Shown piece after piece: positions 432 to 33,248 of a stretch of DNA of 64,000 bases. The stretch's first letter is position 1, and each line of letters starts with the position of its first letter. Source of the stretch: an uncultured Pseudomonadales bacterium (GTDB taxonomy: Bacteria; Pseudomonadota; Gammaproteobacteria; Pseudomonadales; JAUIET01); assembly GCA_964544755.1 (NCBI GenBank), contig CAZJDL010000002.1, positions 2,470-66,469 on the forward strand, given 5' to 3'. The notes under the pieces are model-generated. The model was given only the letters and a program-made list of their open reading frames with translations, searched no databases and had not been told where the DNA came from. Both the position numbers and the translations under genes were made by a program.

Positions 432-574
432 AACCGTTCTCCAAAAAATTCTTTAAACTTCCAAGCAGCCAAGCATACTATAGCGTTTCAACACGATAGG
501 AAACCGGAAGTCTACGACTTTTGCGTTTGCACTGTTATCCCAGGTATACGAAAGACTGCCGTTATATTGTAGTG

Positions 575-770
575 ACTAGTGTGGTGCCTCGGATGGAGTC
601 AGGATGGACTCATGCACGATGGATGCACAGGATGTGCAAGTGTCGCGGGAGACACGACTGCATGGACACGGGAGGTAGAGCAGTGCCGGGAGCAATTGCC
701 GAGGAAGCCGCTAGCGACCGAACTCAGGAGCGCAAAAACAGTACGCGACCTGTGCGGCTAACCACTGAAA
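575..770 (+). ncRNA. candidate CsrA/RsmA-sequestering sRNA (CsrB/RsmY/RsmZ-like); ends uncertain
   Basis: 12 GGA triplets lie in 591-729 (139 nt; about 2 expected by chance). Several sit in hairpin loops: GAGTC-AGGATG-GACTC (596-611), TGCAC-AGGAT-GTGCA (624-638), GTGTC-GCGGGA-GACAC (640-655), and ACTGC...GCAGT (657-684) with two GGA in its loop. The motif CACAGGATGTG matches the CsrA SELEX consensus ACARGGAUGU. A TATATT -10 lies at 563-568. There is no convincing ORF. A 7-bp hairpin at 744-770 is a possible 3' end. Confidence 0.45.
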
Positions 771-774
771 ACGC

Positions 775-1512
775 TTAGCCGGGAGTGACTCCCAGCGCTT
801 TCGCCAGCTCAGCCGCCGGCAGATAACCTGGCAACATTTTACCGTCACCGGTAATCAAAGCCGGGGTGCCATTAACGCCCAGTTGTTGCCCCAATTCATA
901 TTGGGCGGCAACCGCGTTGTTTCCGCAGGTTTGCATGGCCACTTGCTCACGGTTCTTCAGCTGTGTTAGCACGCTGCTGGAATCATCGGCGCACCAGGCT
1001 GTGACCAATTTATCGTATGCGGGCGAATCCACGCCCGCGCGGGGAAAGGCCAGATATCTGACTTCGATACCCATCTTATTCAACGCGGGTACTTCCTGAT
1101 GCAGTTTCTGACAGTAACCACAATCGATATCGGTGAATACGGTGACAACGGCTTTGGTGGTTTCCGGCTTGAAGATAATCATATCGCTGGGCTTCACCTT
1201 GGCGAGTTCAACCAGGCGATCTTTTTCACGCTGTTCCTCGGCCAGATTGACGATACCGTCGGCGCGCACCGCAAATAAATCACCGGCGATGAAAAAAGTG
1301 CCATCGGCGGCGGAATACAGCGTGGGCCCATTCAGAATTTTGACTTCGTAAATACCCGGCATGCGGCTTTCTTGTACACTGCTGACGACTAAATCAGGGC
1401 GCGCGCCGGTAATGCTTTTCTTGATTGCCTGCGCAGGCGACGGCTCCGCGCTCGCTGTTGATATAACGAGCAACACACACAAGAAACTCAAACTTCGCAC
1501 TATAGCCTGCAT
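775..1512 (-). CDS. dsbC: thiol:disulfide interchange protein DsbC
   Basis: CGYC active site (DIDCGYCQKLH) and thioredoxin-fold C-terminus. Signal peptide MQAIVRSLSFLCVLLVISTASA. The start was moved to the internal ATG at 1512, which is preceded by GAGGG. The ORF-track start at 1575 is probably over-extended. Confidence 0.9.
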   Translation of the reverse strand: MQAIVRSLSFLCVLLVISTASAEPSPAQAIKKSITGARPDLVVSSVQESRMPGIYEVKILNGPTLYSAADGTFFIAGDLFAVRADGIVNLAEEQREKDRLVELAKVKPSDMIIFKPETTKAVVTVFTDIDCGYCQKLHQEVPALNKMGIEVRYLAFPRAGVDSPAYDKLVTAWCADDSSSVLTQLKNREQVAMQTCGNNAVAAQYELGQQLGVNGTPALITGDGKMLPGYLPAAELAKALGVTPG

Positions 1513-12444: not shown

Positions 12445-12509
<65 letters not shown>

Positions 12510-12531
<22 letters not shown>

Positions 12532-33119: not shown

Positions 33120-33248
33120 GTAAAATTCCTGTAGGGTTATGCCTCCACATATCCCATACGCCTACCCGGCTGCAGTTATACTGCGCCCAGGCACCCAAGC
33201 CCATGTGACGATATGTGTGTGTCGTTGCGGTTGAATAAGTGCGCGCGC

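Follow-up and report, generated by a model that had tools for sequence, protein, structure and literature searches.

CsrB and CsrC of Enterobacteria and Vibrio, and RsmX, RsmY and RsmZ of Pseudomonas, are small RNAs that titrate CsrA/RsmA and are grouped in Rfam as clan CL00106. Five sequence features that define CsrA-regulating sRNAs were set out by Kulkarni et al. (2006): an intergenic location, a high density of the binding motif, the placement of GGA triplets in loops, a rho-independent terminator and a conserved upstream UvrY/GacA site (PMC1488887). Later prediction pipelines also demand a terminator (PMC5568370). RsmW of Pseudomonas aeruginosa is a sponge with a moderate number of GGA triplets (7), and it has neither a terminator of its own before the neighbouring gene nor a canonical promoter that depends strongly on GacA (PMC4950607). 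Among the cultured Cellvibrionales, Teredinibacter, Saccharophagus and Cellvibrio encode CsrA and GacS/GacA (PMC2699552).

The DNA analysed here is a 64,000-nucleotide stretch, referred to below as the window, from an uncultured group filed under Pseudomonadales. Homologues of its DsbC and Hom proteins identify Spongiibacteraceae, Halieaceae and Cellvibrionaceae as its closest named kin, and we describe the host as an uncultured marine gammaproteobacterium belonging to a group related to Cellvibrionales. The local gene order is rimM-trmD-rplS-xerD-dsbC-hom-thrC, and a spacer of 343 bp (432–774) separates the start of hom, at about 431 on the minus strand, from the stop codon of dsbC (775–777, minus strand). 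The gene boundaries called on L161, a near-identical contig, agree with this gap, and no conserved open reading frame lies within it, in keeping with the initial annotation, which had described the spacer as lacking a credible ORF. A tblastn search of the 64-kb window found no csrA, so the host is assumed to carry it elsewhere in its genome. At Rfam gathering scores, the only catalogued RNAs in the window are a t44 RNA (33136–33239, minus strand, 73 bits) and a tRNA of 84 nt (12445–12528, + strand). In our estimate, there is about an even chance that the + strand at ~570–740, within the spacer, is a candidate correctly identified as a CsrA/RsmA-decoy sRNA.

The GGA cluster and its hairpins

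The + strand carries GGA triplets at positions 591, 595, 602, 606, 621, 630, 648, 664, 671, 689, 703 and 727. The count of 12 within 139 nt (591–729) given in the initial annotation was reproduced, as were its four AUGGA motifs, at 593, 604, 619 and 662. The mean for the window is 1.05 GGA per 139 nt; elsewhere, the + strand always has fewer than six in such a length and the maximum on the minus strand is seven. This one-strand cluster is unique within the 64 kb. The asymmetry between the strands is complete, with 12 GGA and no TCC in the + strand core. In 2000 dinucleotide-preserving shuffles of the segment 575–745, the mean number of GGA was 5.4 and the maximum 11, so that 12 was never attained. 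Eight of the 12 triplets occur as AGGA or A-N-GGA, a density of eight per 150 nt; over the rest of the window, both strands included, the maximum is four.

The four GGA-loop hairpins proposed in the initial annotation are all present as perfect 5-bp stems on the + strand. Three of them, GAGUC-AGGAUG-GACUC (596–611), UGCAC-AGGAU-GUGCA (624–638) and GUGUC-GCGGGA-GACAC (640–655), hold one GGA in the loop, and the fourth (657–684) pairs ACUGC with GCAGU around an 18-nt loop containing two. Overall, GGA lies in the loop in six of six perfect hairpin configurations; the shuffled sequences have a mean of 0.57 such configurations and only 0.15% of them reach six. The heptamer CAGGAUG occurs exactly twice, at 600–606 and 628–634, in each case within a hairpin loop. 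The hairpin at 624–638 had been likened to the core of the CsrA high-affinity consensus. Its sequence, ACA-GGAUGU, falls one base short of ACARGGAUGU, the consensus reportedly derived by SELEX by Dubey and co-workers in 2005, but it does contain an exact copy of CAGGAUG, which Liu and co-workers are said to have defined in 1997 as the repeat consensus of CsrB.

In the minimum-energy fold of the window sequence, the hairpin array (576–714, + strand) is closed by two helices, in which CUAGUG (576–581) pairs with CGCUAG (709–714) and CCUCGG (587–592) with CCGAGG (699–704). The counterpart of this closing helix in related lineages is formed by GCGCCAGGG paired with CCCUGGAGCGC. As an alternative to the local hairpin at 640–655, a long-range helix (642–718, + strand) may form between GUCGC (642–646) and GCGAC (714–718). 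In the consensus fold, each of the four lineages has either invariant or G·U pairs in this helix; without covariation, this is weak evidence of a conserved long-range interaction. The overall fold is no more stable than those of shuffled sequences on either strand (z +0.9 to +1.1), an unremarkable outcome for arrays of short hairpins.

Related lineages, family models and transcription signals

Syntenic loci were fetched via DsbC and Hom from genomes, metagenomes and read-set assemblies, and a covariance model, R1, was built from four lineages. In the window, R1 matches the conserved GGA-rich core, the body of the candidate sRNA, at 569–740 on the + strand with a score of 88 bits and E=4e-23. 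When R1 was run against 81 sources (the window and 80 loci, ~385 kb), its matches fell without exception in the dsbC–hom gap: in the window, L001, L081/L163/L166, L174, L161, L177 and L178. The element is therefore present in about five related uncultured lineages, in one gap and in one orientation. L161 and L177 are near-identical to the window; L178 is a variant form cut by a contig end; L001 is complete, and its type is also represented by the partial contig L162; L081, L163, L164 and L166 share a common form; and L174 represents one more lineage. Of the element, just the outer parts are present on the L170/171 and L175/176 contigs. Across the 81 sources, no member was found outside this small clade, and a repeat search found no second copy within the 64-kb window. 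GGA-dense sites in distant dsbC loci (L003–L005, L043, L046, L059–L062 and L079) were rejected as coding sequence.

Three sister lineages of 81–83% DsbC identity (L002/L168/L169, L082 and L105/L167/L172), whose divergence is similar to that among the carriers, have a different, GGA-poor spacer that lacks the element, and R1 finds no member in the L002, L082 and L105 spacers. On the minus strand of these loci (L002:3190–3400, L082:2740–2830 and L105:1040–1250), we observed repeats of units resembling GTGCG(G/C)ATTTTGTA, together with a handful of YGGAUUYUG motifs; in L002 there is also a GCTAGCG block similar to the 5′ start of the element. Such spacers may be distant or degenerate relatives of it.

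Inspection of the hom–dsbC spacer in related genomes, suggested in the initial annotation as a check, thus located the GGA core at the same locus. The core is 78–87% identical among lineages, compared with 55–63% at the third-codon positions of dsbC; the dsbC DNA overall is 79–82% identical. The comparison indicates that the core is under purifying selection and that the element is a real and conserved non-coding unit. The asymmetry between the strands recurs in the cores of L001 and L081, each of which has seven GGA and no TCC. No fewer than four GGA triplets are invariant across lineages, as is the apical hairpin UGCACA-(N)GGA-UGUGCA. This hairpin is the homologue of 624–638 and forms the apical loop of the minimum-energy folds of L001 and L081; it reads UGCACA-UGGA-UGUGCA in L001, UGCACA-CGGA-UGUGCA in L081 and UGCAC-ACGGAG-GUGCA in L178. 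In L001 and L081, it takes the form CA-N-GGA-N-G, reportedly the RsmE-binding consensus described by Schubert and co-workers in 2007. The expectation that the GGA hairpins would be kept in relatives was borne out for the hairpin at 624–638, which is retained in four of five lineages and altered in L174 with its GGA still in a loop, but not for that at 596–611, whose pairing is lost in L001, L081, L178 and L161 and which is specific to the window lineage.

The window lineage has also gained material. An insertion of ~49 nt (657–705, + strand), occupying alignment columns absent from L001, L081 and L174, adds the hairpin at 657–684 and three more GGA, so that five extra triplets are introduced, and an 11-nt duplication adds one more. 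Module gain of this kind is known from Csr sRNAs.

Membership of the Csr/Rsm families was not supported by the Rfam covariance models. At gathering score, no Rfam 15 family matches the locus, CsrB, CsrC, RsmX, RsmY and PrrB_RsmZ included. With the threshold relaxed to E<=10, the sole match is a local one to CsrB, spanning two GGA hairpins at 591–638 and scoring 8.1 bits against the 71 needed, with E=5; the elements of L001, L081 and L174 gave no Rfam match at either the gathering or the permissive threshold. The element also bears a resemblance to the TwoAYGGAY RNA motif, which we take to be Rfam RF01731, in that AYGGAY sequences occur within or close to hairpin loops, as AUGGAU and AUGGAC in the window and as ACGGAC, AUGGAU and ACGGAU in relatives, but it matches no such model even at E<=10. 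The element belongs to no catalogued family.

Transcription signals are sparse. A simple scan of 400–900 identified no sigma-70-like promoter. The TATATT noted in the initial annotation is indeed at 563–568, but it is not a conserved −10 element, as it lies within the decayed homologue of a stem arm (see below); in the relatives this position is inside the 5′ arm itself, which appears to belong to the RNA. The remark that a GacA/UvrY box is lacking was upheld: the best match in the window scores 8/12 and overlaps the putative −10, and the best matches in L001 (9/12) and L081 (8/12) lie at different distances and are not mutually aligned. The scan used the Pseudomonas consensus (TGTAAG-N6-CTTACA) alone. 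A conserved block (A/T)T(N)CCAGG-(N)-TGAGC was observed immediately upstream of the 5′ arm in the window (539–543), L001, L081 and L174; promoters of the sigma-54, RpoE and FliA types were considered by eye near CCAGG 539–543 and none fitted. A −10-like TATAGT (477–482, minus strand) that we tentatively assign to hom precedes the start of that gene by 46 nt and lies within a block, GCATA-N-TATA, that is conserved in every lineage including the element-free L002, L082 and L105. Between this promoter-like block and the element, the window has a small perfect palindrome, AAGTC-TAC-GACTT (508–520).

At the 3′ end, the absence of a classical U-tract terminator was likewise confirmed, with no terminator-like site in 400–900 on either strand and no U run after the last + strand GGA. 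The 7-bp hairpin CGGCUAA...UUAGCCG reported at 744–770 does exist, but at 755–781, where its 3′ arm overlaps the dsbC stop codon; no U-tract follows it on either strand and the hairpin is not conserved in L001 or L081. A further hairpin, GGGAG-UGA-CUCCC (782–794), lies in the last codons of dsbC, with AGCGCUUUCG after it on the + strand. This hairpin, which L001 does not conserve, probably arises incidentally from the coding sequence.

The closing stem and rival explanations

In L001 and L081, inverted repeats of 26 nt enclose exactly 109 nt of GGA-rich core (L001:3272–3432 and L081:1930–2090, on the minus strand of each locus). The repeats are 96% and 88% complementary, respectively, and each complete unit adopts a long rod-like fold (z −7 and −5). 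These two lineages have arms of unrelated sequence around a core that is 86% identical, and a third version of the arms, with further compensatory changes, is found in the L170/L176 lineage; in all three, 25–26 of the 26 positions pair. L174 retains 14 bp of the stem. For this comparison, the arms were scored directly for pairing; MAFFT puts the 3′ arm of L081 one column out of register. Pairing is thus kept either by selection or by concerted change of both arms, with the sequence itself drifting at approximately the neutral rate.

The window differs in that its arms pair at only 14 of 26 positions. The homologue of the 3′ arm, AAAACAGTACGCGACCTGTGCGGCTA (735–760, + strand), aligns with the 3′ arm of L001, AAAACAGTAGGCGATCTGTTCGGCGC, and no longer pairs with the degenerate homologue of the 5′ arm (545–570, + strand), in which the TATATT is found. 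The window lineage has lost the closing stem and gained extra GGA hairpins instead. The possibility that the arms act as local terminators was considered and rejected, as the local stems are just 3–4 bp and are not conserved in L081. Two other readings of the flanking repeats were also set aside: a retron msr-msd, which the inverted repeats had suggested together with a UAGC close to the 5′ end, has no adjacent reverse transcriptase gene, and 6S RNA and Y RNA, suggested by the rod and closing stem, give no Rfam match and have the wrong context.

L001 seems, from its sequence, to carry a second, inverted copy of the element. At the contig end (L001:3480–3511), 47 nt further upstream, there is an apparent start of a copy arranged head-to-head with the first and bearing an L081-type arm, CGCGAGAGGATGGGGTTATTTTT followed by GCAGTGACT. 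Midway between the two, at L001 3449–3466, lies AGTAATCCTAAGCTTCCA, which matches the GacA box at 9/12 positions. The rest of the second copy was not recovered, there being no further contig of this lineage among the Hom homologues. Seven short contigs from different samples (L162, L170, L171, L175, L176, L178 and L001) end in or beside the element, and such endings could reflect a repeat, strain-level variation or simply the short contigs that these sources yield.

These observations have to be weighed against the explanation of the element as a REP/ERIC/MITE-like palindromic repeat between genes, or the decayed remnant of one, in which case the GGA richness would be incidental and any function structural, for example in stabilising or ending the dsbC message. 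The unit of the relatives, ~160–175 nt in length and bounded by inverted repeats, has the size and rod-like fold of such repeats; its arms turn over around a constant core, it is present or absent between close and similarly diverged lineages, it possibly occurs twice in one gap, and several short contigs end in or beside it, although short contigs are the rule in these sources. A true palindrome would, however, place a TCC opposite each GGA, and the ratios observed are 12:0 in the window and 7:0 in L001 and L081. Unlike repeats of these classes, the element has a core that is constrained at the sequence level, and every instance lies in the dsbC–hom gap, with no other copy in the 64-kb window or the ~385 kb of related loci and no visible target-site duplication. 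In the window itself, 14 of 26 arm positions pair, the fold has z +1.1 and the core has no palindromic arrangement of GGA and TCC; the loss of the terminal inverted repeat together with the gain of GGA hairpins points to selection on the GGA array. We regard this explanation as unlikely.

The element might instead encode a structured non-coding RNA on the + strand that is unrelated to CsrA, acting either to titrate some other RNA-binding protein or as an antisense regulator running into the 3′ end of dsbC. The conserved helices and the compensatory changes in the closing stem speak for a structured RNA, and the element is convergent with dsbC with no terminator intervening. Furthermore, the most conserved blocks include sequence outside the GGA motifs, namely UGUGUCGCGG and GCCG-N-CAGCG-N-CCG. 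Against such an RNA, no Rfam family matches, the GGA triplets are the feature most consistently conserved and expanded, and they match the known forms of CsrA sites, CAGGAUG and CA-N-GGA-N-G. An RNA of this kind is, in our assessment, distinctly unlikely.

A third explanation assigns the function to the minus strand, where the element would form the 3′ untranslated region of dsbC or its terminator region, or else an upstream control region or leader of hom. The element directly follows the dsbC stop codon, hom is downstream, and a run of 5–7 U occurs after the first stem arm in all lineages; the hairpin preceding this run, however, is limited to 4 bp both in the window and in L001 and is missing from L081, and terminator-like sites are found on neither strand. 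The conserved −10-like block of hom lies between the element and hom and is kept in the lineages that have no element. The base-pairing evidence also bears on this point. Pairing of the 640–655 hairpin is maintained in L178 (GUGUU/GGCAC) and L001 (GUGUC/GGCAC) only via G·U pairs, which would become A·C mismatches on the minus strand, so that the + strand is favoured. The long stem arms of the relatives contain four G·U pairs and two mismatches when read as the + strand, compared with one G·U pair and five mismatches on the minus strand, and the consensus core folds at −19.2 kcal/mol with 24 pairs on the + strand and at −14.7 kcal/mol with 19 pairs on the minus strand. The G·U pairs and consensus folding together mildly favour the + strand as the predicted functional strand, and we consider a minus-strand function very unlikely.

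The two + strand ORFs in the mechanical ORF list, 521–778 (85 aa) and 579–761 (60 aa), have a negligible chance of encoding a small protein, since they start with TTG or GTG and comparison with L001, L081 and L174 reveals indels of 5, 3 and 49 nt that break every reading frame and rule out a conserved ORF.

A candidate CsrA decoy

A decoy for CsrA/RsmA is, in our view, the best single explanation of the element; it draws on the sequence signature and its conservation, and we hold it with middling confidence. Three of the five features of Kulkarni et al. (PMC1488887) are found: the element is intergenic, within the 343-bp hom–dsbC gap; its motif density is high relative to a background consisting of the single 64-kb window; and GGA occupies the loops of four perfect hairpins, the apical one of which is conserved in relatives. 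Neither a rho-independent terminator nor a conserved upstream UvrY/GacA site was found. The GGA signature, which is statistically strong, and the conservation thus partly uphold the proposal of a sponge in the initial annotation, but with three of five published features present, its description as probable was too strong. Since later pipelines demand a terminator (PMC5568370), the candidate would be filtered out by them.

We envisage that ~570–740 on the + strand encodes a small non-coding RNA whose 12 GGA triplets, several of them in short-hairpin loops that include two CsrB-type CAGGAUG loops, would bind several CsrA dimers at once and titrate them away from target mRNAs, in the manner of CsrB/CsrC and RsmX/Y/Z. 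The transcription of this segment, the ends of the transcript, its binding by CsrA and the control of its expression are inferred. If the closing stem of the relatives is formed in RNA, their transcript must start upstream of the 5′ arm, and this is probably the case. Expression may be controlled by something other than GacA, as with RsmW and RsmV. The 25–26-bp clamp of the relatives could stabilise the RNA or set its ends through processing.

The element shares with CsrB/CsrC/RsmX/Y/Z an intergenic location, GGA triplets on one strand at intervals of ~12–15 nt, the positioning of GGA in the loops of short hairpins, two exact CAGGAUG repeats, an apparently fast evolution by gain and loss of hairpin modules, and a predicted action as a multivalent decoy. 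It is unlike them in having no covariance-model match, no rho-independent terminator and no recognisable GacA/UvrY box in the window, and in that its relatives possess a stem of 25–26 bp joining the 5′ and 3′ ends. To our knowledge, such an end-joining stem is not a feature of those families. RsmW provides a precedent for a sponge without two of the classical features (PMC4950607). RsmW, however, comes from the 3′ end of a same-strand upstream mRNA, whereas the element has no + strand gene upstream, and neither RsmW nor RsmV has sequence similarity to it.

A more speculative idea, which we think has only a small chance of being correct, is that the element represents a new architecture for a CsrA decoy, in which a GGA core of ~110 nt is clamped by a 5′–3′ stem of 25–26 bp whose sequence turns over while its pairing is kept. 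Units of this type would sometimes form a head-to-head pair, would evolve in one of two ways, with the clamp retained, as in relatives, or lost while GGA hairpins are added, as in the window, and might constitute a duplicating cassette that spreads CsrA-binding capacity.

Should the element prove to be a palindromic repeat, it would serve as a warning that GGA density by itself is no proof. If instead the candidate decoy is real, standard pipelines that demand a terminator and a GacA box miss some sponges (PMC1488887, PMC5568370). The clamped core of the relatives and the expanded form in the window would provide a natural series for the gain and loss of binding modules in a decoy RNA. No such sRNA is catalogued in Rfam for this uncultured group related to Cellvibrionales, and a real decoy at this locus would give a first handle on the Csr/Rsm circuit in these marine bacteria.
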